Numbered from the stretch's first letter, positions 3,769 to 16,722 are shown. The stretch: 64,000 bases of DNA from Candidatus Hydrogenedentota bacterium (GCA_045863335.1 BTVY01000019.1:47039-111038); one strand, 5' to 3'. Notes: generated by a model from the letters alone, not told the origin. Made by a program: numbers and translations.

Positions 3769-5790
3769 ATGCCTGTGCCACGTGGAGTGCATATCCTGCT
3801 TGCGGCTGCGATCATCGCTGGGCTGGCAATGTTGCTCACTGCGCGATCGCTGCAAAGCGGGTTCGCCACGGACGATCATTTTGCGCGCGCGACATTCAAT
3901 GGGTTCCCAGGCATCCCTGAGTACGAGAACGACGCCTTCAACGCATTCCTTTTTTCCCGCGGCGACCCGGAGCAGAATCGGGCATTGATGAATCGGGGCG
4001 TCTTCCCCTGGTGGACCGTGCCGGCGGCGCGGCTGGCCTTCTGGCGGCCTATGGCGACGTGGTCGCATTATTTCGATTACCGCGTGTGGGGTGACAATCC
4101 CTGGCCCATGCATCTGGAGAACATGCTGCTGTACGGGCTGGTCTGCCTTTTCGCGGCATTGCTGTACTGGCGGCTCATGGAGCCTCCCTGGGTGGCATTC
4201 TTCGCCGCGCTCCTGTTCACCATCGATGAAAACAATGGCCACGCCGTGGGTTGGCTGGCCAACCGGAACATGCTGATGGCGGCCGCCTGCGTGATCCTGA
4301 TCCTGCTCATTCATGACGGCTGGCGCCGGTCGGGCATGAAATCGTGCGCGGTGCTGGGTCCGCTCGTACTGGCTTTCGGTTTCCTGTGCGCGGAAGCCGT
4401 GATCGCAGTGGGCGGTTACCTGCTCGCCTACGCCTTGTTTCTCGACAAGGGCAAGTGGCCACACCGATTGATAACGCTCCTGCCGTATGGCGTCGTCGTT
4501 ATCATATGGAATGTCTTTTACCGGAGTTCGGGGTTTGGCTCCGCCGGTTCCGGATGGTATACGGACCCCGCCAGCAATCCGGTCGGGTTTTTAGGAGCGC
4601 TTTCGCAACACCTGCCGATCCTGCTGGCCGATCTTTTTCTCATGTGGCCGTCGCCGCTTCTGAACCAATTCAACGCCGCGCAGTTCCCCTATATCGTCGC
4701 GTTGCTGGGTTTGGTCGTCGTCGGAATTCTGTTGCTGCTAGTGCCCATGCTCAAGCGCGATCCCGTTTCGCGATTCTGGCTGCTCGGGCTTGTGCTGGCG
4801 CTCGTACCGGTCTGCGCGGTGACGCCGCAACCGCGCGTCGTTCTGATCGCGGGCATCGGTTGTGCGCCGTTGATAGCGCGCTTCCTTACGGCCTGGGCGA
4901 CGCCGCGCCAATGGCTCGGGTTTGCAGGCGTCCTCGCCGTTCTTGGTCTCATCGCCGTCACAGTCGGCATCCCAACCCTGTCCTTTTACACGCAAGCGGC
5001 GCTGATCGCGACGACTCTACTTGTCATCGCCGTGCTGCTGCGGTTCGCGACGGCGCGGGCGGAGTGGATGCCCCACTCCAAGGCGTGGCGCATTCCCGCG
5101 GCGGTGCTTGCGTTCTTGTGGGTTATCTTTCACGGGATCGCGGCGCCCATCGCCATGCCGGGATCGAGCATGCTGCTGGGCGTCTCGGCGAAAAAGATGG
5201 AACGCGCCTACGCGGCCATTCCGTCCGCTCCAGAAGTGGCGGACCGCACGGTCGTGTTGCTGCGTGCGCCGACGGATTTCATGCCGTGGCATTTCGCGTT
5301 GATCCGCGCATCGCTGAATATCCCCTACCCGGGGCGCATGCGCGTGCTGTCGTCGGGCAATCGCAGCGTAAGGGTCGAACGCGTGGACGAACGCACGCTG
5401 CGCCTGAGCGCCGACCCCAACCTGATTGGGAACGCGTCCACGAGCGTGTTTCGCGCGCCGACGGTCCCGATGCACCCGGGAGACATCGTGGAACTCGATG
5501 GGATGACCGTGACGGTGCTTGCTGTGGACGGCAAGGGGATGCCCGCCGCCGCGGAATACCGCTTCGACCTGCCCTTGGATCACACAAGTGTGGACGTGAT
5601 CACCGTCGCGGACGTCCCGTACAAGCTGGTGAATATCAACCGGTACATTCAAACGGAGACGTACGTGCCGATTTCTTTGCCGGCGGAGGGAAGCTCTGCC
5701 CAACTGGAAGAATTGGTAGAACAGAGCGCCGTGTATCAGGAACTCAATACGCGCGACGCCGCGGACGATACACGCGCATCAGAATCCTGA
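3769..5790 (+). CDS. Polytopic membrane protein, GT-C (PMT/TMTC-like) glycosyltransferase candidate
   Basis: TDD acidic motif after TM1, WRP, AVGWLANR, more than 10 hydrophobic helices and a soluble C-terminal domain. Start moved to ATG 3769 because the track start overlaps hup. Confidence 0.65.
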   Translation: MPVPRGVHILLAAAIIAGLAMLLTARSLQSGFATDDHFARATFNGFPGIPEYENDAFNAFLFSRGDPEQNRALMNRGVFPWWTVPAARLAFWRPMATWSHYFDYRVWGDNPWPMHLENMLLYGLVCLFAALLYWRLMEPPWVAFFAALLFTIDENNGHAVGWLANRNMLMAAACVILILLIHDGWRRSGMKSCAVLGPLVLAFGFLCAEAVIAVGGYLLAYALFLDKGKWPHRLITLLPYGVVVIIWNVFYRSSGFGSAGSGWYTDPASNPVGFLGALSQHLPILLADLFLMWPSPLLNQFNAAQFPYIVALLGLVVVGILLLLVPMLKRDPVSRFWLLGLVLALVPVCAVTPQPRVVLIAGIGCAPLIARFLTAWATPRQWLGFAGVLAVLGLIAVTVGIPTLSFYTQAALIATTLLVIAVLLRFATARAEWMPHSKAWRIPAAVLAFLWVIFHGIAAPIAMPGSSMLLGVSAKKMERAYAAIPSAPEVADRTVVLLRAPTDFMPWHFALIRASLNIPYPGRMRVLSSGNRSVRVERVDERTLRLSADPNLIGNASTSVFRAPTVPMHPGDIVELDGMTVTVLAVDGKGMPAAAEYRFDLPLDHTSVDVITVADVPYKLVNINRYIQTETYVPISLPAEGSSAQLEELVEQSAVYQELNTRDAADDTRASES

Positions 5791-5796
5791 GGGATC

Positions 5797-7506
5797 ATGT
5801 CCGGTCTTGACCCGAGACAGCGCTCCGGCCTTTTGGCCTTGGCGTTGGCGTGCTGTGCGGTCGCGTTGTACGCGCGCACGATGGCTTTCCCCTTCGTCTA
5901 TTTCGACGACGACATGTACGTATTCCAGAATTCCATCGTGTCTTCCGGCCTTACGGGCGCAGGGGTGGTTTGGGCGTTTACAACCGGCCACCTCGCGAAC
6001 TGGCATCCGCTCACCTGGGTATCCCACATGATCGACGCGCAGTGCTTCGGCATGTGGGCGGGCGGGCATCATGCGGTAAACGTACTGATTCACGGCGCCA
6101 ACACGGCCATGCTCTTCCTGGCGCTGCGCGCGTTGACGGGCGCGACGCTTCGAAGCGCGTTCGTGGCGCTACTGTTTGCCGTGCACCCGGTCAACGTGGA
6201 ATCGGTCGCGTGGATTTCCGAGCGGAAGAACGTGCTCAGCACGTTCTTCCTTCTGGCGACACTGATGGCCTACGTCCGCCACGTCGAACTGCCTGGCTTT
6301 CGCCGGTACTTGGTGGTCTCCGTCATTTTCCTGCTCGGCCTGATGACGAAACCCATGCTGGTAACCCTGCCCTTCGTCCTGTTGCTTCTCGATTACTGGC
6401 CGTTGAACCGGTATGCGGGCCGCACGCCCATGCAGGCATTGCGACGCTTCGGACGCCTGGCATACGAGAAGATCCCATTGTTTGCGGTCTCGGTTGTCTC
6501 ATCGATGGTCACCTACGCCGCGCAGCATCGTGGCGAAGCGATGTCGGCGATGGCCGAGTTGCCTTTCGACGCGCGGCTTGCGAATGCCGTTCTCGCGTAT
6601 GGGGCGTATTTGAAGCATCTCCTGTGGCCCGCAGGACTCGCGGCCATCTATCCCCATTCGGGAGAATCCTATTCGCTCGTCACGGTTTTCGTGGCGCTTG
6701 GAATACTTGCAGCCATATCCTTCGCGGCGGTTGCCCTGATTCGTCGCGCGCCGTATCTCTTTGTGGGATGGTTCTGGTTTGCCGGTACCCTCGTGCCCGT
6801 GATCGGCCTCGTCCAGATCGGCTATCAATCCATGGCTGACCGCTATCTCTATGTTCCCGCTATCGGCGTGTTCACCGCCGTCGTGTGGGGGATTGCGGAC
6901 TTTTGTGAAGACCGTCCGTTGCGGCGACGCATCGCTTTGTGGACGGGCGCGGCCTGCGTCGCACTGCTCGCCGCTGTCTGCTGGCGGCAGATGACCTATT
7001 GGCGGGGGACGGTACCCTTGTTCGAGCGCGCGATCGCGGTCACCGAAACGAACGCGGAAGCGCACAATCACCTCGCGTACTACTACCTGACCCAGAACGA
7101 ACCGGAAAAGGCGATCCCGCACTGCGAAGCGGCGCAGGAGGACCGTCCTGGCCTGGCGGCCACGTATACGAACTGGGGCGCGGCACTGCGGATGATGGGA
7201 GACGCGCAGGGCGCCATTGCGAAATACGAGGAGGCCTTGCGGCTCAAGGCCGGCGACTCGGTGATCCATACGAACCTCGGCATCGCGCTGCTCCAGTCGG
7301 GCCGAAACGACGATTCGCGCAAGCACCTGGAAGAAGCGGTCCGAATTGATCCCCGGTCGGCCTCCGCGCATGCCTACCTGGGCGCCGCGCTTGCCGCGAT
7401 GGGGATGCCGGAGGATGCCAAAGCCCACTTCGAAAGAGCCCTGGAAATCGATCCCGAATACGAACTGGCCCGTTCCGCGCTGGACGCTTTGTCGACGATC
7501 CCCTAG
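5797..7506 (+). CDS. TMTC-like membrane glycosyltransferase with C-terminal TPR repeats
   Basis: FDDD, NWHPLTW, HPVNVESVAWISERK, KPMLVTLP, ADRYLY; TPR motifs (AHNHLA, YTNWGAAL, HTNLGIAL). Confidence 0.85.
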   Translation: MSGLDPRQRSGLLALALACCAVALYARTMAFPFVYFDDDMYVFQNSIVSSGLTGAGVVWAFTTGHLANWHPLTWVSHMIDAQCFGMWAGGHHAVNVLIHGANTAMLFLALRALTGATLRSAFVALLFAVHPVNVESVAWISERKNVLSTFFLLATLMAYVRHVELPGFRRYLVVSVIFLLGLMTKPMLVTLPFVLLLLDYWPLNRYAGRTPMQALRRFGRLAYEKIPLFAVSVVSSMVTYAAQHRGEAMSAMAELPFDARLANAVLAYGAYLKHLLWPAGLAAIYPHSGESYSLVTVFVALGILAAISFAAVALIRRAPYLFVGWFWFAGTLVPVIGLVQIGYQSMADRYLYVPAIGVFTAVVWGIADFCEDRPLRRRIALWTGAACVALLAAVCWRQMTYWRGTVPLFERAIAVTETNAEAHNHLAYYYLTQNEPEKAIPHCEAAQEDRPGLAATYTNWGAALRMMGDAQGAIAKYEEALRLKAGDSVIHTNLGIALLQSGRNDDSRKHLEEAVRIDPRSASAHAYLGAALAAMGMPEDAKAHFERALEIDPEYELARSALDALSTIP

Positions 7507-7562
7507 AATAGTTCCCGAGCAATGTGCCGTTGCCGTCCGATTCTCGAGAGGGAGGTCACGCC

Positions 7563-8525
7563 ATGGGAACAGGGGGATTCCAGGATGCAGGCGGGCGCAT
7601 GCGCGTCATGGACGCCGTGCAGGCATCCATCGACCGCACGCGCACGATGTTGTTCGAGCCATTCGATTTCGAGCGTTGGCTCACGTTCGGGGTAATCGCG
7701 TTTCTCGATATCTTTCTGGCCGGCGGTGGCCTGTCCCGATCCGGCGCGCGGTTCTCGGGTCAAGGGCAAGGGGGCTCGCAGTCTTCGCCAAATCTGGACG
7801 GCGTGGCGGAGTGGTTGGGTGAGAATGCCGTTTTGATTGTGATGATCGCCGTCCCTCTTATCCTGATCGCGTTGGCGATTCATGTGGGACTCATGTACGT
7901 GGGGTGTCGCGGCCAGGTCATGTTTGTACGCTCCGTATCCATGAACGGCGGCAAGCTGGGCGAGCACTGGAGCGCCGTAAAGCAGCCCGCGTGGTCACTG
8001 TTCCTCTTCCGGCTCGGGCTGCTCGCCGTTTGGCTGGTATTCGTGCTTGTCCTGATTCTGTTCTTTCTCGTTGCGGTCGGGTTGCAGGGTGGATTCCGAT
8101 CCGGTGAGGCGCTGCTGTATACCCTGATTCCCTTTGGCCTCGTAGTAGTGGCGGGATGGGTAGTTCTGGCGTTGATTCAGGTCATGTTGCGGGCCTTCGT
8201 CGTGCCCCTCATGTGGGCGCGCGATCTGTCGTGCACGGAAGCCTGGCAGGTGTTCGTTCCCCTTGCGAAGGCAAACGCGGGCTCCCTCGCCGGATTCGTC
8301 CTGATCAAGATCGCATATAGCATCGGATTCAGTATCGCGACGCTGTTCGTGGGTTGTCTGACCTGTTGCATCGGCTTGCTGCCCGTCGTTCATCACACGT
8401 TGTTCGCGCCGTTCTATGTGTTTGACCGGGCTTTTCCGATGGAAATGCTGGCCATGTCGGGGGAGGACGAGGGCACGTTGTTTGCCCCCGTGCCATATGA
8501 GGCGCCGCCGCCCCTGGTCCGCTGA
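7563..8525 (+). CDS. Conserved membrane protein of unknown function
   Basis: ATG after GGAGGT; several TM segments; CLTCCIG motif. Confidence 0.7.
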   Translation: MGTGGFQDAGGRMRVMDAVQASIDRTRTMLFEPFDFERWLTFGVIAFLDIFLAGGGLSRSGARFSGQGQGGSQSSPNLDGVAEWLGENAVLIVMIAVPLILIALAIHVGLMYVGCRGQVMFVRSVSMNGGKLGEHWSAVKQPAWSLFLFRLGLLAVWLVFVLVLILFFLVAVGLQGGFRSGEALLYTLIPFGLVVVAGWVVLALIQVMLRAFVVPLMWARDLSCTEAWQVFVPLAKANAGSLAGFVLIKIAYSIGFSIATLFVGCLTCCIGLLPVVHHTLFAPFYVFDRAFPMEMLAMSGEDEGTLFAPVPYEAPPPLVR

Positions 8526-8543
8526 CGCGAAGGCCGCGGGCGA

Positions 8544-9965
8544 TCAGGCGAGGATTTCGTGGATCACGTGGCCGTGCACGTCGGTCAGGCGGCGGTCGAT
8601 CCCGTTATGGCGGACCGTGAGCTTCTCGTGATCGATTCCGAGCAGATACAACACGGTGGCGTGGAGATCGTAGCAGTAAGTCGGTTTGTCGACGGCCTTG
8701 TAGGACCACTCGTCGCTCTCGCCGTACGAGACGCCGCCTTTGAATCCGCCGCCCGCCACCCACGAGGTGAAGGTGAAGGGGTTGTGATCGCGGCCTGCGC
8801 TGCCCTGGCTGCAGGGCATGCGCCCGAACTCCGTGGTCCAGATGACGATCGTGTCGTCCAGCATGCCCCGGCCCTTGAGGTCTTTCAGGAGCGCCGCGGC
8901 CGGTTTGTCCATACTGCCCGCCATGTCGGCGTGATCCTTCTTGAGATCTTCGTGCGAATCCCAATTCCGGCGGGGGAACCCGTTGTCCGCGCCGCTCCAG
9001 ACCTGAACGAATCGGACGCCCCGCTCCAGCAAACGGCGGGCGACCAGACAGTTCCGGCCGAAGTCTTCCGTGACAGGGTCGTCGAGTCCGTACAACTTCC
9101 GCGTCAACTCCGATTCACCGGAAAGATTCAACACTTCCGGCGCGCTCAATTGCAGCTTGGCCGCCATCTCGTAGCTGGCGATGCGCGCGTTGAGCCGCGA
9201 ATCACCCATCCGGCTCGCTTCGTGTTCGCGGTTGAGCGCGTTCAGCACCTCCAGCGCTTCCGCGTCTCCCTCCGGTGTAACGTAGGTGCCGTCCGGCGGG
9301 TGGAGGTCCGCGATAGGATTCGATGCGGCAGGGCGAATGAGCGTTCCTTGATGGTCCGATGGGAGAAATCCCGCGGACCAGTTCTTCGGGCCGCCCGGTG
9401 CGAACCCGCGGGAGTCCGGCAACACAACAAAGGTGGGCAGTTCGTCCGTCTCGCTGCCCAGGCCGTAGCTGACCCAGGAACCGATGCTGGGGAAACCCGG
9501 CAGCACAAAGCCCGTTGTCTGCATGAAAGTCGCGGGACCATGGACATTCGACTTGGCGATCATCGCGTGGAGGAAGGCCATGTCGTCGACACACTCGGCC
9601 AGGTGAGGCACCAGTCCGCTCACCCACTTGCCGCATTCGCCGTGTTGTTTCCACTCCCAGGGACAAGGCATGACGAAGCCGGGGTCGCTCTGAAACAGTT
9701 CGACTTTCTCGCCGGGATCGAAGGGCTCGTTGGCACGCTTGATGAGTTCCGGCTTGTAATCGAAGGTGTCGACCTGGCTGGCGGCGCCGGACATGAAGAG
9801 CTGAATCACGCGCTTCGCCTTGGGAGGGTGATGGAGTCCGTTCAGTGCGCCCGTGTGTCGTTGGGTTGCTGAGGAAGCGTAGGCGTGTTCGCGGCCCAAC
9901 AAATGGGCTAACGCGATTCCACCCAATCCACCGCCAAAATGCCAGAGAAACGATCGTCTATCCAT
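8544..9965 (-). CDS. DUF1501 family (sulfatase-like) protein with Tat-like signal
   Basis: MDRRSFL; AKRVIQLFMSGAASQVDTFDYKP, ARRLLERGVRFVQ, WDSH, EFGR, GRDHNP, DLHAT. Confidence 0.9.
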   Translation of the reverse strand: MDRRSFLWHFGGGLGGIALAHLLGREHAYASSATQRHTGALNGLHHPPKAKRVIQLFMSGAASQVDTFDYKPELIKRANEPFDPGEKVELFQSDPGFVMPCPWEWKQHGECGKWVSGLVPHLAECVDDMAFLHAMIAKSNVHGPATFMQTTGFVLPGFPSIGSWVSYGLGSETDELPTFVVLPDSRGFAPGGPKNWSAGFLPSDHQGTLIRPAASNPIADLHPPDGTYVTPEGDAEALEVLNALNREHEASRMGDSRLNARIASYEMAAKLQLSAPEVLNLSGESELTRKLYGLDDPVTEDFGRNCLVARRLLERGVRFVQVWSGADNGFPRRNWDSHEDLKKDHADMAGSMDKPAAALLKDLKGRGMLDDTIVIWTTEFGRMPCSQGSAGRDHNPFTFTSWVAGGGFKGGVSYGESDEWSYKAVDKPTYCYDLHATVLYLLGIDHEKLTVRHNGIDRRLTDVHGHVIHEILA

Positions 9966-10117
9966 GTCGAACCTTGCGCATTGGTTTCGCGATATGCGTT
10001 TGAGACGGCGTGTGACGCCTAACACCAGGAAAACCTGAGTCGAGTATATCACGGCTCCAGCGGGGAAGCCGTGAGCCACACGCGCGCCCGCCCAAACAGG
10101 CAATCCATTTGCGTTTT

Positions 10118-10139
10118 AATCGTGAATTATGGCACGATT
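10118..10139. promoter_or_regulatory. Palindromic operator candidate (Rex/CRP-type GTG-N8-CAC)
   Basis: AATCGTG-AATTATGG-CACGATT, perfect 7-bp arms, about 85 bp upstream of the respiratory operon. Confidence 0.45.
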
Positions 10140-10224
10140 TCCGCCGCCGCGGGTCCTGCCTGCGGTGCCGATGGCACCATTGCCGCGTCATCGTTGGGGG
10201 ATATTAACAAGGGGGAGTCCGTTC

Positions 10225-11373
10225 ATGGACGTATTTCCTGCCGCGGATCCGATTCCGTTGCCGGCGCCGGTGTGGTTGTTCAAGGCGCTGCATTCGGTCA
10301 CGCTGGTGCTGCATTTCTTTTCGGTGCACTTTCTCGTCGGAGGACTCCTCCTCGCGATTATTTGGTCCTTTGTGGGCCGTTCCCGAAAAGATGCAGTGCT
10401 GCTGAACGCTTCCGGCATGGTGACGCATCGCCTGCCGATCGTGATGACCTACGTGATCAATCTAGGCGTGCCGCCGTTGCTGTTTACCCAGGTGCTGTAC
10501 GGGCGCGGTCTTTATACGAGCAGCGTCCTCATTGGCGCGTGGTGGATCAGCGTCGTCGCCTTGCTCATCGTTTCGTACACCTTCCTCTACATCATGAGCA
10601 GCCGCGCCGAATCGGGGCGCGCGGCCGGTTGGGCAGGGCTCATCGCGCTGATCGTGGTACTGAAAATCGGGTTCATCTACACGAACAATATGACCCTCAT
10701 GCTCCGGCCGGACGTGTGGGGGGCCATGTACGAGAACAGCGCGGCCGGCGTGCAGTTTCATTCCGGCGATCCCACGATGATGCCGCGGTGGCTCTACATG
10801 ATTCTTGGATCCATCGGCGTTGCCGGAATCGCGCTGCTGTTCATCGGCATGAAGAGCACCGTTGACGACGGGGTTGCGGGACTCCTCACGCGGTGGGGCG
10901 GACGCTTGCTCGCCGGATTCACCGTCGTTCAAATCGCGCTCGGGTTCTGGGTGTTTCGCACGCAGCCCGAGGCCGTGCGCGCCGGTCTCACCAGCGGCGC
11001 GGCTTATCCCGCGATGATGGGCCTTTGGGCGGTATCGGCCTTGGCGGCGATCGGACTAGGCGTGATGGTCGCGCGTAGAACCCGCGTGCACGGGGGGCTT
11101 GTTTCAATCGCCGCATTGGCGGCGTTTCTGAATGTATTCGCCATGGTGCTTCTGCGCGACGGCATTCGCGATCTTACGCTCGCTGCGGCTGGTTTCGACG
11201 TGTGGGCGCGCGAGGTCGCAACCAACTGGTCGATCGTCATTATCTTTCTCCTCTGTTTCATGCTTGCGCTGGTCATGATGGTCTGGTTGATCTCCGTCGT
11301 GGCGCGGGCCAAGGCACAGCCGGAATCCTACGCCGCGTTCGCGGATGGATTGGTTGAAAAGGAGGTCGTGTAA
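10225..11373 (+). CDS. CydA-like membrane subunit (CydA'-type) of a bd-like oxidoreductase
   Basis: TM1 LHFFSVHFLVGG and C-terminal LRDGIR parallel the HILISHFAVGGG and REMLR motifs of 12954..14441; about 10 TM helices; RBS GGGGAG. Confidence 0.6.
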   Translation: MDVFPAADPIPLPAPVWLFKALHSVTLVLHFFSVHFLVGGLLLAIIWSFVGRSRKDAVLLNASGMVTHRLPIVMTYVINLGVPPLLFTQVLYGRGLYTSSVLIGAWWISVVALLIVSYTFLYIMSSRAESGRAAGWAGLIALIVVLKIGFIYTNNMTLMLRPDVWGAMYENSAAGVQFHSGDPTMMPRWLYMILGSIGVAGIALLFIGMKSTVDDGVAGLLTRWGGRLLAGFTVVQIALGFWVFRTQPEAVRAGLTSGAAYPAMMGLWAVSALAAIGLGVMVARRTRVHGGLVSIAALAAFLNVFAMVLLRDGIRDLTLAAAGFDVWAREVATNWSIVIIFLLCFMLALVMMVWLISVVARAKAQPESYAAFADGLVEKEVV

Positions 11374-11376
11374 CTC

Positions 11377-11868
11377 ATGGCCGATGCCACGCTGGATTCG
11401 ATGGAAACGCCCGAAGAAAACGGCAGCGCCTCGCCGACGCGCCGCGCGTTTGTGAAGGCGGGATTCGGTTTGGTCGGCGCGTGCTACGCGGGCGCGATCG
11501 GCTATCCCATTTACCGGTACCTGGCCACCCCCGCCGTGCGCGCCGCGGAGATGGGGGCCATCACCGAGGTGGCTTTTCCGGAGACGGACATGCCGCCCGC
11601 GGGTTCCGCGCTGCGCTTCATGTTCGGACCACGCCCGGCCATGCTCATTCATCACACCGACGGCAGCGTGGTTTGTTTCGACGCCGTGTGCACGCATCTG
11701 GGATGCACGGTCGAGTTCCAACCCGACCAGAACCGCATTCATTGCGCATGCCATGGGGGCAATTACGACATGCACACCGGCAAGAACGTGGCGGGCCCGC
11801 CGCCGAAGCCGTTGCGTCAATTCAATGTGGAGGTTGTCGATGGGCAGATCGTCGTCTCTCGCGCCTAG
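11377..11868 (+). CDS. qcrA: Rieske 2Fe-2S subunit of a Rieske/cytochrome b complex
   Basis: Tat anchor TRRAFVK; CTHLGC and CACHGG boxes; GPPPKPL. Confidence 0.93.
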   Translation: MADATLDSMETPEENGSASPTRRAFVKAGFGLVGACYAGAIGYPIYRYLATPAVRAAEMGAITEVAFPETDMPPAGSALRFMFGPRPAMLIHHTDGSVVCFDAVCTHLGCTVEFQPDQNRIHCACHGGNYDMHTGKNVAGPPPKPLRQFNVEVVDGQIVVSRA

Positions 11869-12943
11869 CGCTATACAATCCGGCCTGTATCGTTGGTTGG
11901 ACGCGCGCTTGGGGCTTGCTGAACTTCGGGCCATGGCCCGGAAGAAGGAAGTGCCGCAGCACCGCCATTCGTTCTGGTACTACTGGGGCGGGATCACGCT
12001 TTTCCTATTTCTCATTCAACTGATCAGCGGAATCCTCTTGCTCGTCTACTACCGGCCCGGCGCGGACGCTTATGATTCGGTCCGTCAGATTACGTACGAC
12101 ATCGAGTTCGGCTGGCTGATCCGGTCGGCCCATTCGTGGTCGGCCAATCTCATGGTGCTTGCCGCCTTCGTTCACATGTTCTCCGTGTTTTTCATGAAGG
12201 CGTACCGCAACCCGCGCGAACTCGGGTGGTGGAGCGGTTTGGCCCTGCTCGGACTGACGATGGTCTTCGGGTTCAGCGGCTACCTCTTGCCCATGGACGA
12301 ACTGGCCTTCTTCGCGACCAAGGTGGGGCTTGAAATTCCCGCCAGTATCCCGGGAGTCGGCGCGATCATCGTTACGCTGGTCCAGGGCGGCGAATCGGTA
12401 ACGGCGGTGACCATTCAACGGTTCTTCGCGTTGCACGTCGTCGTGCTGCCCATGGTGTTCATGGCCATTCTCGCGTTTCATCTGTGGCTCGTGCAGAAGC
12501 ACGGCAACGCGGTGCCGCCAAGCGAAGAACTCGTGCCCGAGACCGAACGCCGGTCCATCCCGTTCTTTCCGAACTTTCTGGCGAAGGATCTTGCCATGTG
12601 GCTGATCGCGCTCAACGTGCTCGCGATTCTCGCCTCGATGTATCCCTGGCAATTGGGCGCGCCCGCCGATCCCGCGGCGCCCGCGCCCGAAGGCATTCAT
12701 CCCGAATGGTATTTCATGAGCCAGTTCCAAGCGCTGAAGGTTCTCGGGAATTGGTTGCCGGGCGTAACCGGCGAATTCGCGGGCATTGCGCTGTTCGGGA
12801 TCGGCGGATTGCTTTGGGGCCTGATTCCGCTGTTTGACACCAGCAGCCGGGCCGGCGCGCGCGCGCGGGCGGCCACGTGGTTCGGCGTTATCGCGTTGTT
12901 CGGTTTGATCGCCCTTACAATCTGGGGCTACGCCGAGGTATAG
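11840..12943 (+). CDS. qcrB: Cytochrome b subunit (unsplit) of a bc-type complex
   Basis: Four heme His (SAHSW, FVHMF, ALHVV, AFHLW), SGYLLP, PFFP, PEWY motif. Confidence 0.93.
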   Translation: MGRSSSLAPSAIQSGLYRWLDARLGLAELRAMARKKEVPQHRHSFWYYWGGITLFLFLIQLISGILLLVYYRPGADAYDSVRQITYDIEFGWLIRSAHSWSANLMVLAAFVHMFSVFFMKAYRNPRELGWWSGLALLGLTMVFGFSGYLLPMDELAFFATKVGLEIPASIPGVGAIIVTLVQGGESVTAVTIQRFFALHVVVLPMVFMAILAFHLWLVQKHGNAVPPSEELVPETERRSIPFFPNFLAKDLAMWLIALNVLAILASMYPWQLGAPADPAAPAPEGIHPEWYFMSQFQALKVLGNWLPGVTGEFAGIALFGIGGLLWGLIPLFDTSSRAGARARAATWFGVIALFGLIALTIWGYAEV

Positions 12944-12953
12944 GAGAGTTGGA

Positions 12954-14441
12954 ATGAATTACCCGTTCTGGGACGTGCCGGTTATTGGCAGCGGCTGGGT
13001 GATCGGCGGCATTGCGATCGTCCACATTCTCATCAGCCATTTTGCGGTGGGCGGCGGTTTGTATTTGCCCATGGCGGAACGGAAAGCGCTGCGGGAAGGG
13101 CGCACCGAATGGATGCCCGTGTTGAAACGGCATTCGCGGTTCTTTCTGATCCTCACCGGCGTGTTCGGCGCGGCGACGGGCGTGGGAATCTGGTTTGCCA
13201 TCGGTTTGGCCAATCCGGAAGGCACGAGCACGCTCATTCACAACTTCGTCTTCGGATGGGCGATCGAATGGACCTTTTTCTTCGTGGAGTTGTCCTCGGC
13301 GGCGGTCTATTACTACACGTGGGGGCGCATTCCCGACAAGCTCCACCTCAAAGTCGGTTGGGTCTATGCGTTCTTCTCCTTCCTTACGCTCGTTATCATT
13401 AACGGAATTCTGACCTTCATGCTGACGCCGGGCCAGAGCTGGCTCGAAGTCGCGGGCACCGGAAACGAAGCGACGCGTTTCTGGCAGGCCTTCTTCAATC
13501 CGACGTACTGGCCGAGTCTCGGCATTCGCACCCTGGTCTGCATCTCGCTGGCGGGCGTGTGGGCGCTGGTCACGGCGAGCCGCATCGATGGATTCGAGAA
13601 TCCCGCGCTGAAGACGTCCTTCGTCCGTTGGTCGGCGAAGTGGCTCATCCCCGCCTTCATTCTGTTGCCGGTATTCTTCCTGTGGTTCCTTCACATGGTG
13701 CCCTTCGAGCAGCGCGGGTTAATCAAGCTCGGCATTGCGACCATTGGACAAGGCGTGTTCACGCAGGTGACGCGGGCCGCCTTGGTGACCATGATGACGT
13801 CCGCAACCATCGCGATGATCGTGTACTTCCTCGCGTTCCGCAACCCGCGCGACTTTACCTTCGGTCATGCGGTCGCCGTGTTGTTTCTCGCGCTGGCCGC
13901 GACGGCCTCGACGGAGCAGGCGCGCGAAATGCTGCGTAAACCCTACGTCGTCGTGAACCACATTTACTCCAACGGCGTTCGCGCGAAAACGGAGGTAACG
14001 AAGTTCAATGAGGAGGGCTACCTCACGCGCAGCATCTGGGCCACGGAAGAGCAGAAGGCGGAGTGGGCACGACTCGACGCGGCCACGCCTGTGCCGGGTA
14101 CCGTGGTACCCGCCGCGGAAGCCCCGCAACCCGAACGGGTGCCGCAACTGGATCGCGGCAAGCTCATGCTGCGGGGACAGTGCATGGCCTGCCATACGGT
14201 CGACGGCTACCGATCCTTGCGCAAACTGCTTGCCGAGCGGGACCGGGAATCGATCACCAATGTGCTCACCATGCTGCACGAGTACAAAGACGACTCGCCA
14301 TACCGCGCGTACATGCCGCCCCTCGTCGGCAGCGACGGCGAGATCGCGGCCTTGGCGGATTACCTCGATCACCTCGTGCAGACGGCCAAGCCCGAGCACA
14401 AGGAAGACGCGGAGATCACCGTCGCGACCGCCGATGAGTAG
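12954..14441 (+). CDS. Cytochrome bd subunit I-like protein fused to a C-terminal cytochrome c
   Basis: HILISHF (His19-like), GAATGVGIWF, AIEWTFFFVE (E99/E107-like), FMLTP, FFNP, EMLRKPY (E445/R448-like); CMACH with distal MPP. Confidence 0.85.
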   Translation: MNYPFWDVPVIGSGWVIGGIAIVHILISHFAVGGGLYLPMAERKALREGRTEWMPVLKRHSRFFLILTGVFGAATGVGIWFAIGLANPEGTSTLIHNFVFGWAIEWTFFFVELSSAAVYYYTWGRIPDKLHLKVGWVYAFFSFLTLVIINGILTFMLTPGQSWLEVAGTGNEATRFWQAFFNPTYWPSLGIRTLVCISLAGVWALVTASRIDGFENPALKTSFVRWSAKWLIPAFILLPVFFLWFLHMVPFEQRGLIKLGIATIGQGVFTQVTRAALVTMMTSATIAMIVYFLAFRNPRDFTFGHAVAVLFLALAATASTEQAREMLRKPYVVVNHIYSNGVRAKTEVTKFNEEGYLTRSIWATEEQKAEWARLDAATPVPGTVVPAAEAPQPERVPQLDRGKLMLRGQCMACHTVDGYRSLRKLLAERDRESITNVLTMLHEYKDDSPYRAYMPPLVGSDGEIAALADYLDHLVQTAKPEHKEDAEITVATADE

Positions 14442-14470
14442 GCGGTAAGCGTCAATCCTGTTCTCCACAA

Positions 14471-14631
14471 GAACATCCCCCTTATCCCCCTTCAAAGGGG
14501 GAGTTTCGCGCAACGCGGAGCGTTGCGATAGTTCGGCCCGACGACATGACATCACTGCGTGCGACGCGGAGTTACAAAGGCACCGACCTGGCGCAATTCC
14601 CCCTTCGAAGGGGGATTCAAGGGGGATGTTC
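14471..14631. repeat. REPIN/MITE-like element, copy 1
   Basis: Terminal inverted repeats GAACATCCCCCTT...AAGGGGGATGTTC, each with an internal CCCCCTTxxAAGGGGG palindrome; second copy at 43026-43192. Confidence 0.85.
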
Positions 14632-14757
14632 CTGCCTTCTCGCCGAGGTCTCCACTTGTCATCAAGCGCGCCTTTGATCGTTCTGCAAAGCGCGTGATAG
14701 GCTTTCTGCGCCGGTCATTCCGATCGGTATCACCTTGGTGTAAGGCGAAAACACGTC

Positions 14758-15108
14758 ATGAGCAGTACGATCACGATTTATCACAATCCACGGTGCACCA
14801 AGAGCCGCGAAACATTGGCCCTGCTACGCGAAGAGGGCGTTGAACCCGAGGTGGTCGAATATCTGAAGACGCCGCCGTCGAAGGCCCGCCTCCGGGAGTT
14901 GGCGAAGCTCCTGGGCAATGCGCATGTCTTGCTGCGGACGAAGGAGAAAGAGTACCAGGCGCTCGGTCTGTCGCCGGAAAGCACAACCGCCGCTATTGTC
15001 GACGCGATTGCCGAGCACCCGATTCTGCTGGAGCGCCCCATCGTCGTCTGTGACGGCAAGGCCGCAATCGGCCGGCCGCCGGAGTCGGTGCTGCGCATCC
15101 TTCCCTGA
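14758..15108 (+). CDS. arsC: ArsC/Spx family (glutaredoxin-type arsenate reductase-like) protein
   Basis: IYHNPRCTKSR, YLKTPP, HPILLERPIV, IGRPPE. Confidence 0.88.
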   Translation: MSSTITIYHNPRCTKSRETLALLREEGVEPEVVEYLKTPPSKARLRELAKLLGNAHVLLRTKEKEYQALGLSPESTTAAIVDAIAEHPILLERPIVVCDGKAAIGRPPESVLRILP

Positions 15109-15147
15109 CGACAGTTTCCGCGACATCGCGACTGGAGACCAAAACGA

Positions 15148-16722
15148 ATGCCCCCTTCGAAGAAACGTCCCAAGATCACGACGCGCCCGTGGAAGGAAGA
15201 AGACATTCCCGCGCTGGTGGAATGCCAGTATGCCGCGTATAGCGACTTTCCGCACTACCGGCTCTGCAACGAGCGGCTGTTCCACTTGCAGCACACCGCG
15301 TTCCCGGAGGGCCAGTTCCTTGCGGAGGTGGACGGCCAGATCGCGGGGTACTGCGCGTCGCTGATCGTGATGCTGGACGACTCGGCGCCCTGGCATTCCT
15401 ACAACGAGATTACCGGCAGCGGCACTTTCAATACCCACGACCCCGGCGGCGACACCTTGTACGGCGCGGAGATCGCCGTACGGCCCGAGTATCGCGGGAT
15501 GGGCGTCGCGGGCGCGTTGTACAAGGAACGCATCAAACTCATGAAGCGCTTCAATCTCCGTCGCATGGTGGCGGGCGGGCGCATCCCGGGCTACTGGGAG
15601 TACGCGGGGAAGATGACCGCGGAAGAGTACGTCGACAAGGTCATCGCCGGCGAACTTAAGGATCAGGCGCTGAACGCGCACATCAAGGCAGGGTATTCCG
15701 TCAAGGGGATCCACTACGACTATCTCAGCGACGAGGCAAGCCTGAACTACGCGACCCACCTCGAGTTGATCAATCCCGACTTCAAACTAGAGCGGCGGCG
15801 CATCGCGTCGTCACCCATTACACGACCTGTGCGGCGTGTGCGCGTGTGCGCGGCGCAATACGATCTCCGCGGCATTCGAAGTTGGGAAGATTTCGAACGG
15901 CAGGTGGATTTCTTCGTCACGACGGCGGAAGAGTATCACTGCCATTTTCTCGTGTTTCCGGAACTGTTCACGGCGCAGCTCATCAGCACCATGGACCGCG
16001 ACATGGAGCCGTTGGAGGCCGTGCGCCACCTTGCGGACTATACGGATCAATACACGGAAATGTTCGCCGCCATGTCGCAACGGTTCGGCGGGTACATCAT
16101 CGGCGGATCGCATCCGGTCATGCGGGAAGGCTCGCTCCGCAACGTCTCGCACCTGTTTTCGCCGACAGGACAGATCTACACGCAGGACAAGTTGCACATT
16201 ACGCCGGACGAACGGAAGTTCTGGGGCATTCAGCCCGGCGAAGGGTTGAACGTGTTCGAGACGGAGTTCGCGCGTATCGCGATCCAGGTCTGTTACGACA
16301 TCGAGTTCCCCGAGATGAGCCGGCTCCTCACCTTGTACGGCGCGGAAGTCGTCTTCGTTCCGTTCATGACCGACGAGAAGAAGGCCTACTCCCGCGTGCG
16401 GCTCTGCGCCCAGGCGCGGGCCGTGGAGAACTACATCTATACCGTCATCGCGGGCAACGTGGGGAACTTGCCGCAGGTGCGCAGCTTTCTCATCAACTAC
16501 GGCCAGGCGGCCATCTTTACGCCGAGCGATTTCGCGTTCCCCCCGCATGCGACCGCGGCGGAAGCGGAACCCAACACGGAGATGGTGGTCATCACCGATC
16601 TCGATCTCGAAACCCTCGCGTTGCAGCGGGACATGGGGACCGTGCGGCCGCTGCGCGACCGGCGGCCGGACCTCTACACCCTCGTGCCGAGCCGCGCGGT
16701 CAACGTGATCCGCACTCAGTAG
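15148..16722 (+). CDS. GNAT / carbon-nitrogen hydrolase fusion (YhcX-like)
   Basis: N-terminal GNAT (VRPEYRGMGVA); nitrilase triad FPE, QDKLH, VCYD; ARAVEN. Confidence 0.9.
   Translation: MPPSKKRPKITTRPWKEEDIPALVECQYAAYSDFPHYRLCNERLFHLQHTAFPEGQFLAEVDGQIAGYCASLIVMLDDSAPWHSYNEITGSGTFNTHDPGGDTLYGAEIAVRPEYRGMGVAGALYKERIKLMKRFNLRRMVAGGRIPGYWEYAGKMTAEEYVDKVIAGELKDQALNAHIKAGYSVKGIHYDYLSDEASLNYATHLELINPDFKLERRRIASSPITRPVRRVRVCAAQYDLRGIRSWEDFERQVDFFVTTAEEYHCHFLVFPELFTAQLISTMDRDMEPLEAVRHLADYTDQYTEMFAAMSQRFGGYIIGGSHPVMREGSLRNVSHLFSPTGQIYTQDKLHITPDERKFWGIQPGEGLNVFETEFARIAIQVCYDIEFPEMSRLLTLYGAEVVFVPFMTDEKKAYSRVRLCAQARAVENYIYTVIAGNVGNLPQVRSFLINYGQAAIFTPSDFAFPPHATAAEAEPNTEMVVITDLDLETLALQRDMGTVRPLRDRRPDLYTLVPSRAVNVIRTQ

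Follow-up and report, generated by a model that had tools for sequence, protein, structure and literature searches.

A conserved four-gene cassette combining a Rieske/cytochrome b module with a cytochrome bd-like subunit pair in Candidatus Hydrogenedentota and other bacterial phyla

The four genes and their products

The DNA analyzed here is a stretch of 64,000 nucleotides from a Candidatus Hydrogenedentota bacterium (GCA_045863335.1, BTVY01000019.1:47039-111038), referred to as the window in the following, which belongs to a genome of 6.75 Mb with a completeness of 99.4%. On the plus strand of the window, positions 10225-14441 contain a compact run of four genes in the order g1-g2-g3-g4, with gaps of 3 nucleotides between g1 and g2 and of 10 nucleotides between g3 and g4, while the start of g3 overlaps the stop of the preceding Rieske gene by 29 nucleotides. 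A first-pass annotation made from the sequence alone had read this run as four tightly packed genes encoding a CydA'-like protein, a Rieske protein, a cytochrome b and a CydA-like protein with a CxxCH motif, accompanied by neither cydB nor a cytochrome c1 gene. The first part of this description is borne out by gene calls, by Pfam matches and motifs and, for g1, by its predicted fold. As to the second part, none of the four cassette proteins gave a CydB match (PF02322), and cytochrome c1 (PF02167) was not found when the whole window genome was searched. For the analysis of residue conservation each protein was aligned with 43 homologues from genome loci found through g4, and residues called invariant below are so in these 44 sequences.

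The second gene, g2 (11377-11868, plus strand), encodes a Rieske [2Fe-2S] protein of 163 amino acids (PF00355, E 1.5e-14) with an N-terminal twin-arginine motif of the Tat type (RR at residues 21-22) and the cluster-binding boxes CTHLGC...CACHGG, in which C105, H107, C110, C123, C125 and H126 are invariant. Its best NCBIfam matches are the b6f and bc1 Rieske models, every one under its cut-off. The third gene, g3 (11840-12943, plus strand), encodes a fused cytochrome b of 367 amino acids, consisting of a b6-like N-terminal and a subunit-IV-like C-terminal part, which matches PF00033 (Cytochrome_B, E 8.9e-45), PF13631 (E 9.7e-45) and PF00032 (Cytochrom_B_C, E 5.4e-8). The PEWY motif and the four histidines that had been pointed out in it are invariant, in detail P288-E-W-Y291 and the haem-ligand histidines H98, H112, H199 and H214. 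The overlap with g2 results from placing the start of g3 at the ATG at 11840; a ribosome-binding site, GGAGG (11829-11833, plus strand), read from the sequence, lies inside the 3' end of g2, six bases before this ATG.

The fourth gene, g4 (12954-14441, plus strand), encodes a protein of 495 amino acids which, from its PF01654 match, alignments and structural model, appears to be a CydA-like subunit resembling the OR-C1a proteins discussed below, with eight transmembrane (TM) helices and a C-terminal periplasmic cytochrome c domain. The match to PF01654 (E 1.6e-16) is confined to profile positions 8-190 of 418. A profile built from the g4 alignment recovers solved CydA chains (5doq_A, E 1.4e-5), and in the alignment with 5doq_A H24 falls on the histidine of TM1, E105 and E112 fall on the two channel glutamates and REMLRKPY falls on the ExGRQPW-type motif. 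The two glutamates of g4 are spaced by 7 residues, as in the Geobacillus chain. H24, E105, E112, E325 and R328 are invariant, as are C410, C413, H414 and M454, so that the His19-, E99/E107- and E445/R448-like residues proposed in the first-pass annotation could all be recovered (for E. coli CydA we assume the numbering H186, M393, E445 and R448). A comparison of g4 with the canonical CydA encoded by the same genome (contig C73) using hhalign aligned residues 19-205 with a probability of 88 and placed Ile191 of the sequence GIRT opposite the histidine of LTHVW, which we take to be the haem b558 ligand of canonical CydA; it was at this very position that GIRT had been suspected to replace the ligand. 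In the main text of the preprint by Murali, Gennis and Hemp (2021), His19, E99 and E107 are the residues named for the di-haem site and the proton channel of CydA, and a glutamate spacing of 7 residues is described as shared by the OR-C and OR-N branches of the bd superfamily.

The structural model of g4 (predicted local distance difference test, pLDDT, 81.2) contains eight long helices within residues 14-335 and a helical periplasmic domain after residue 345. In this model TM6 and TM7 are connected by only about 20 residues, from which it follows that the Q-loop is absent from g4, in agreement with what had been read from the sequence. When the model was compared with the PDB using Foldseek, the ten best matches were all CydA chains. 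The g4 protein is 57-80% identical to its aligned homologues, a conservation similar to that of cytochrome b. The haem c attachment motif C410-x-x-C413-H414 (14181-14195, plus strand) is likewise invariant, exactly one CxxCH being present in 44/44 g4 sequences and none in g1, g2 or g3. M454 is part of an invariant M-P pair and is the probable sixth ligand of this haem, as judged from the alignment.

The first gene, g1 (10225-11373, plus strand), encodes an eight-helix membrane protein of 382 amino acids which matches no family in Pfam or NCBIfam and whose profile found nothing among the PDB sequences. Its start was put at 10225 and not at the upstream ATG at 10129 because the homologues begin at the same MxxFPAVDPIPLP motif. 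An AlphaFold2 model of g1 (pLDDT 91.1; predicted template modelling score, pTM, 0.89) was compared with the PDB using Foldseek, and the top 21 matches were all CydA or CydB chains (probability 1.00, template modelling scores 0.49-0.70, best E 9.8e-5). A protein atlas model of g1 reached a template modelling score of 0.73 to a PF01654 cluster, and the nearest atlas neighbours were unnamed 'hypothetical protein' clusters in Acidobacteriota, Thermodesulfobacteriota, Myxococcota, Verrucomicrobiota and Planctomycetota. According to these models g1 has the fold of a cytochrome bd subunit; the lack of such a fold had been named beforehand as one of the findings that would refute the first-pass annotation. 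What links g1 to the bd family is only its structural similarity, together with a weak similarity between its profile and that of g4.

The predicted structure and the Foldseek matches thus describe g1 as a putative CydA/CydB-fold paralogue and OR-C1b-like partner subunit. His30 in TM1 of g1 is invariant, and the segment R311-D312-G-I-R315-D316 aligns with R324-E325-M-L-R328-K329 of g4, with D312 (present in at least 90% of the sequences) at the position of E325. The channel glutamates have no counterpart in g1. According to the main text of the Murali preprint, 'b'-type partners keep the equivalent of His19 and lack the channel glutamates.

A complex of g1 and g4 was predicted with an ipSAE interface score of 0.89 (median of three runs) versus 0.00 in the best of 3 controls. 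In the calibration used, the mark of 0.89 was reached by 116/157 solved complexes and by 2/215 mismatched pairs, which, to the detriment of the proposed pairing, is only a rough guide since the prediction used alignments built by ourselves. At least 98% of the contacts are common to the runs, with a partner pLDDT of 89 or more. The predicted interface is composed of g4 residues 2-9, g1 residues 2-14, TM2-3 of both proteins and the last helix (TM8) of g1, and the use of both N-termini would explain why these are nearly invariant. In addition, residues 343-362 and 407 of g4, just before the CxxCH motif, contact a conserved periplasmic loop of g1 (residues 165-175) in the model. The prediction therefore supports a g1:g4 heterodimer.

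Conservation of the cassette and its carrier genomes

Two sets of 80 loci each were compared, the first from genomes and found through g4, the second from metagenome contigs and found through cytochrome b, a search that was chosen to remove the bias of the g4-based one. All of the 70 genome loci with room for g1 show g1-g2-g3-g4 on the same strand, and the remaining 10, which are cut by contig ends, each show every gene they have room for. Among the metagenome loci with enough flanking sequence, g4 was found downstream in 71/71, g2 upstream in 68/68 and g1 in 61/61. The survey of this gene order across genomes, which the first-pass annotation had suggested as a check, thus showed it to be conserved. 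As the same four genes occur in the same order in every examined locus where contig ends allow, their association is far beyond chance.

The titles of the records carry at least seven phylum-level labels, namely Hydrogenedentota, Verrucomicrobiota, Acidobacteriota, Planctomycetota, relatives of Chlorobiota, Armatimonadota and Omnitrophota; a few further taxon labels may represent binning errors. Two loci, L007 and L038, are titled 'uncultured Nitrospiraceae'. Their g4 proteins are 97% and 71% identical to that of the window and cluster with Hydrogenedentota sequences, so these bin labels may be wrong. The g1-type proteins form 1864 clusters without a single Pfam domain, and their source names are 'hypothetical protein' with the exception of one DUF202/YidH label. 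Relatives of g4 go under the names 'cytochrome ubiquinol oxidase subunit I' and 'cytochrome c family protein'.

Some loci contain additional genes within the cassette. An extra gene is located between g2 and g3 in L103, L105, L111 and L120 and between g3 and g4 in L028, L103, L117, L129, L155 and L167. We read these, from their sequences, as either a short-chain dehydrogenase (SDR)-like protein of about 254 amino acids or a four-helix-bundle-like open reading frame (ORF) of about 105-180 amino acids, the latter being a common type of insert. L120 and L142 contain a different ORF of about 150 amino acids between g3 and g4. No cytochrome c was found among the genes inserted in the metagenome loci.

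To the sides of the cassette no conserved flanking gene was detected: 1655 flank ORFs of at least 80 amino acids were clustered, and no family occurred in more than 4 loci, a result with which a small CydX-like subunit of less than 80 amino acids may still be compatible. A separate c1 serving this bc complex, the existence of which the first-pass annotation had named as a point against itself, did not come to light, since PF02167 was not found and no conserved neighbour supplies a c-type cytochrome.

Besides the cassette, the window genome encodes a canonical cydAB on the other contig mentioned above (C73) and three haem-copper oxidase genes. It also contains a second Rieske/cytochrome b cluster (L088, G000:C9:84000-98000, ORFs 4044-13770, plus strand), composed in this order of an NAD(P)-binding FeS flavoprotein, a Rieske protein, a cytochrome b of 515 amino acids, a multi-haem cytochrome c, a molybdopterin oxidoreductase of 999 amino acids and a 4Fe-4S protein. 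We take this second cluster to resemble the NAD(P)-linked Rieske/cytochrome b complexes of anammox bacteria.

A haem-copper oxidase was detected in 44/50 cassette genomes, a figure that covers several phyla and has no comparison group. Six carriers have no haem-copper oxidase, and four of the five that were checked also lack CydB, in genomes that may be incomplete. Within the Hydrogenedentota the distribution of the cassette is patchy (34/135 genomes, 18/66 genera), and a haem-copper oxidase is found in 76/135 genomes. According to our tabulation the oxidase is present in 29/34 genomes with the cassette versus 47/101 without it (both 29, cassette only 5, oxidase only 47, neither 54); as these genomes are related and not independent, the link between oxidase and cassette is to be taken as a tendency and not as a test. 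Two of the Hydrogenedentota carriers, G162 (100% complete) and G082 (97% complete), encode the cassette and complex I, and neither a haem-copper oxidase (PF00115) nor CydB was found in them. G082 has other molybdopterin enzymes. These two genomes would be natural test cases for a cassette acting alone.

In the window the cassette is flanked upstream by a divergently transcribed DUF1501 gene and downstream by an ArsC-family gene, and scans for promoters and terminators gave nothing useful within the operon. Between g4 and the ArsC-family gene, at 14469-14633, two inverted G/C-rich palindromic copies (CCCCCTT..AAGGGGG hairpins) flank about 95 bases. Over both strands of the 6.75-Mb genome, the 17-base core of the palindromic motif has 146 exact copies, a number that rises to 641 when up to 2 mismatches are allowed, and the motif looks like a dispersed repeat of the repetitive extragenic palindromic (REP) or miniature inverted-repeat transposable element (MITE) kind. 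A depth spike at 14382-14849 was considered as a possible RNA gene and rejected, as no tRNA and no Rfam family at gathering score was found there and two matches were at chance level (E ~0.4). The spike is explained by the dispersed repeat element.

Proposed electron path and its alternatives

With fair confidence we propose that the cassette is one operon which combines a Rieske/cytochrome b module for quinol oxidation with a bd-like heterodimer of the OR-C type, and that it probably serves the complete transfer of electrons from quinol to oxygen. The gene content, the residue conservation, the two folds, the predicted g1:g4 pairing and the invariance of the cassette are supported by the results above, and it is from these that we infer the electron path and the charge yield, as well as that the two modules dock physically and that O2 serves as acceptor. 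The interpretation given in the first-pass annotation is supported in part.

In detail, g2 and g3 would constitute the quinol-oxidising module with the core of a Q-cycle and a Qo site, and g4 and g1 would form a pseudo-symmetric, CydA/CydB-like heterodimer of the cytochrome bd superfamily. The first four helices of g4 keep the two active-site haem ligands and the two proton-channel glutamates, and in place of the lost Q-loop and of the histidine at the b558 position g4 has its C-terminal periplasmic mono-haem cytochrome c. Cytochrome b would oxidise menaquinol at its Qo site. One of the electrons would then travel by way of the Rieske cluster to the haem c fused to g4, this haem standing in for cytochrome c1, and further to the di-haem site, where O2 would be reduced with protons drawn from the cytoplasm, while the other electron would be recycled via haems bL and bH. 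By textbook bookkeeping this would yield about 2 charges per electron versus 1 for a canonical bd oxidase. That the haem c feeds the di-haem site is suggested by the combination of three features: the only haem c of the cassette is located on g4, the quinol site and the b558 histidine are gone, and the di-haem site and its channel are intact. As the head of a Rieske protein reaches only a nearby haem, a docking of the bd-like heterodimer on cytochrome b is implied.

Several results weigh against this proposal or leave parts of it less firm. The profile similarity between g1 and g4 is weak (hhalign E 2.5e-4, probability 42.7, collinear over about 180 columns, with LMLRP paired with FMLTP, DPTxxPRW with NPTYWPS and RDGIR with REMLR), and the g1 profile shows no similarity to the canonical CydA and CydB of the same genome (hhalign probability 0.1). 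The successful prediction of the g1:g4 complex may partly be owed to the memory of the model for solved CydAB complexes, or to the likeness to them. The cytochrome c match of g4 (PF13442) is weak as well, with an E of 0.0051 and 17.6 bits versus a Pfam cut-off of 27. One RNA-labelled run, X3, gave contigs over the whole of 9000-16000 with a flat word depth of about 3-13 on the cassette and its neighbours; these contigs cross the g2/g3 and g3/g4 junctions, and the coverage includes the divergent neighbour genes. Such libraries can hold DNA, and contigs do not prove a transcript. Moreover, most carriers have haem-copper oxidases, and the fused haem c could therefore pass its electrons elsewhere. 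Finally, G162 also encodes a nitrite reductase of the NrfA type, which gives it another possible respiratory exit besides the cassette. The NrfA gene of G162 contains one in-frame TGA.

Among the alternatives, the one that survives best, although we regard it as unlikely, is that the cassette encodes two co-expressed and physically separate complexes, with electrons being carried to the haem c of g1/g4 by a cytochrome c, soluble or tethered to the membrane, whose gene lies elsewhere, and without an obligate supercomplex. The complex prediction would allow for this, as it bears on g1:g4 only, and the genome does encode other c-type cytochromes, for instance the multi-haem protein of the second cluster with Rieske and cytochrome b genes. 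The invariant order and tight packing in every locus with room, irrespective of whether it was found through g4 or through cytochrome b, speak against two separate complexes. Furthermore, a cytochrome c gene is never found inside or conserved beside the cassette, and the genome search returned no c1.

Since the reactions of canonical bd oxidases include those with NO and H2O2, it might be argued that the bd-like module reduces nitric oxide, hydrogen peroxide or a further small oxidant instead of O2, and that the cassette serves detoxification or anaerobic respiration. None of our results defines the acceptor, and the 5/34 cassette-bearing Hydrogenedentota genomes without a haem-copper oxidase, with the NrfA of G162 among them, suggest that an anaerobic life is possible for some carriers. 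We nevertheless consider this explanation quite improbable. The histidine, the two glutamates and the E445-like residue form an invariant set, which the main text of the Murali preprint treats as defining the site of O2 reduction. The frequencies of haem-copper oxidases given above, both the higher one among the (non-independent) cassette-bearing Hydrogenedentota genomes and that among all carriers, point in the same direction.

The notion that g4 and g1 chiefly serve as a membrane scaffold with a non-catalytic TM part, which presents haem c as a substitute for c1 while the electrons leave for haem-copper oxidases or other periplasmic acceptors, would fit the missing c1 and the many carriers with haem-copper oxidases, which need reduced cytochrome c, but it is very unlikely because the haem-ligand and proton-channel residues of a g4 protein as conserved as this one are invariant across at least seven phylum-level labels, a constraint not expected of a mere anchor, and because two near-complete genomes have the cassette and neither a haem-copper oxidase nor CydB.

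Returning to the proposed route from quinol to oxygen, a more far-reaching version of it can be put forward tentatively, and with less confidence than the route itself. The cassette might encode an obligate, copper-free, four-subunit quinol:O2 oxidoreductase, that is a third kind of III-IV supercomplex in which a Q-cycle is hard-wired to a bd-type site via a fused haem c and which would yield roughly twice as many charges as a canonical bd oxidase does, and it might be the sole oxygen reductase in some lineages (G162, G082). In such a complex g1 may bind a further haem, as His30 is His19-like and an aspartate occupies the E445-like position.

Relation to known systems and implications

The canonical CydAB oxidases (solved structures include 5doq, 6rko and 7ose) are similar to the g1:g4 pair in the fold of both subunits, the ligands of the di-haem site, the proton-channel glutamates and the predicted TM2-3 interface. 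Unlike them, the cassette has no Q-loop, no histidine at the b558 position, no ninth helix and no CydB, and electrons would enter through the fused haem c and not from quinol. The bc1 and b6f complexes have in common with the cassette a Rieske protein with two Cys-x-His boxes and a cytochrome b with four histidines and PEWY. They differ from it in having a dedicated cytochrome c1 or f subunit, whereas the sole haem c of the cassette is fused to g4.

The actinobacterial bcc-aa3 supercomplex transfers electrons from quinol to O2 without a soluble cytochrome c, since its Rieske cluster is connected to the oxidase by a c-type haem domain that is a fixed part of the assembly. Its oxidase is a copper-containing, proton-pumping haem-copper enzyme, and the haem c domain resides on the bc part (QcrC). 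The cassette would resemble it in having a bridging haem c that is fixed in the complex, and it differs in that this haem c is located on the oxidase subunit.

The closest published kind appears to be OR-C1a/OR-C1b, a branch of the bd superfamily described by Murali, Gennis and Hemp (2021). The main text of this preprint characterizes OR-C1a by eight helices, a haem c extension, an adjacent paralogue and a likely cytochrome c donor; the group was defined from sequence and comes with no biochemical data, which confirms the statement of the first-pass annotation that OR-C is known mainly from sequence. Eight helices, a missing Q-loop, a C-terminal haem c and equivalents of His19, E99 and E107 are all found in g4. 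As described there for OR-C1a, g4 keeps the first four helices with these equivalents, is without a quinol site, spans the membrane about eight times and carries its haem c at the periplasmic C-terminus, and g1 corresponds to OR-C1b in being a paralogue that keeps the His19 equivalent and is devoid of the channel glutamates. The two differ from the 'adjacent' OR-C1a and OR-C1b genes of the preprint in that Rieske and cytochrome b genes separate g1 and g4. The number of haems c also differs, one being present in this cassette versus up to eight in the OR-C members of Desulfovibrionia covered in the preprint. A count of the word 'Rieske' in the main text of the preprint gave 0; its Figure 1, which deals with operon contexts, and its supplements lie outside this count and may already draw the link.

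A related situation exists in Nitrospira, where, according to passages in Mundinger et al. (2019, PMC6606698), complex III is located beside 'bd-like' oxidases of the OR-N type and a III-IV supercomplex was speculated upon from gene clustering and co-expression. There too, CydA-like proteins without a quinol site are encoded in a cluster with Rieske and cytochrome b genes. As far as these passages describe it, the Nitrospira region differs from the cassette in belonging to another bd branch, in being larger and looser with separate cytochrome c genes and NXR-related subunits, and in having no fixed four-gene unit with a fused haem c. Our literature search found no paper describing the present four-gene cassette. 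The parts and the family are known, and it is their hard-wired combination that is uncharacterised.

To our knowledge, only two enzyme superfamilies are widely used for respiratory O2 reduction, and all characterised bd-type members that we know of are fed directly by quinol and conserve little energy. If the proposed function is true, a bd-type site fed by a Q-cycle via a built-in haem c would allow electrons from quinol to reach oxygen without copper and with a greater gain in energy. The carriers belong to abundant phyla of soil, freshwater and sludge, including Verrucomicrobiota, Acidobacteriota, Planctomycetota, Hydrogenedentota, Armatimonadota and aerobic relatives of Chlorobiota. The genome-based scoring of aerobic capacity would be altered, as g1 is annotated as 'hypothetical' and g4 is mislabelled as 'ubiquinol oxidase subunit I'. 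In addition, the cassette offers cultivable systems in which the role of the OR-C branch can be tested.

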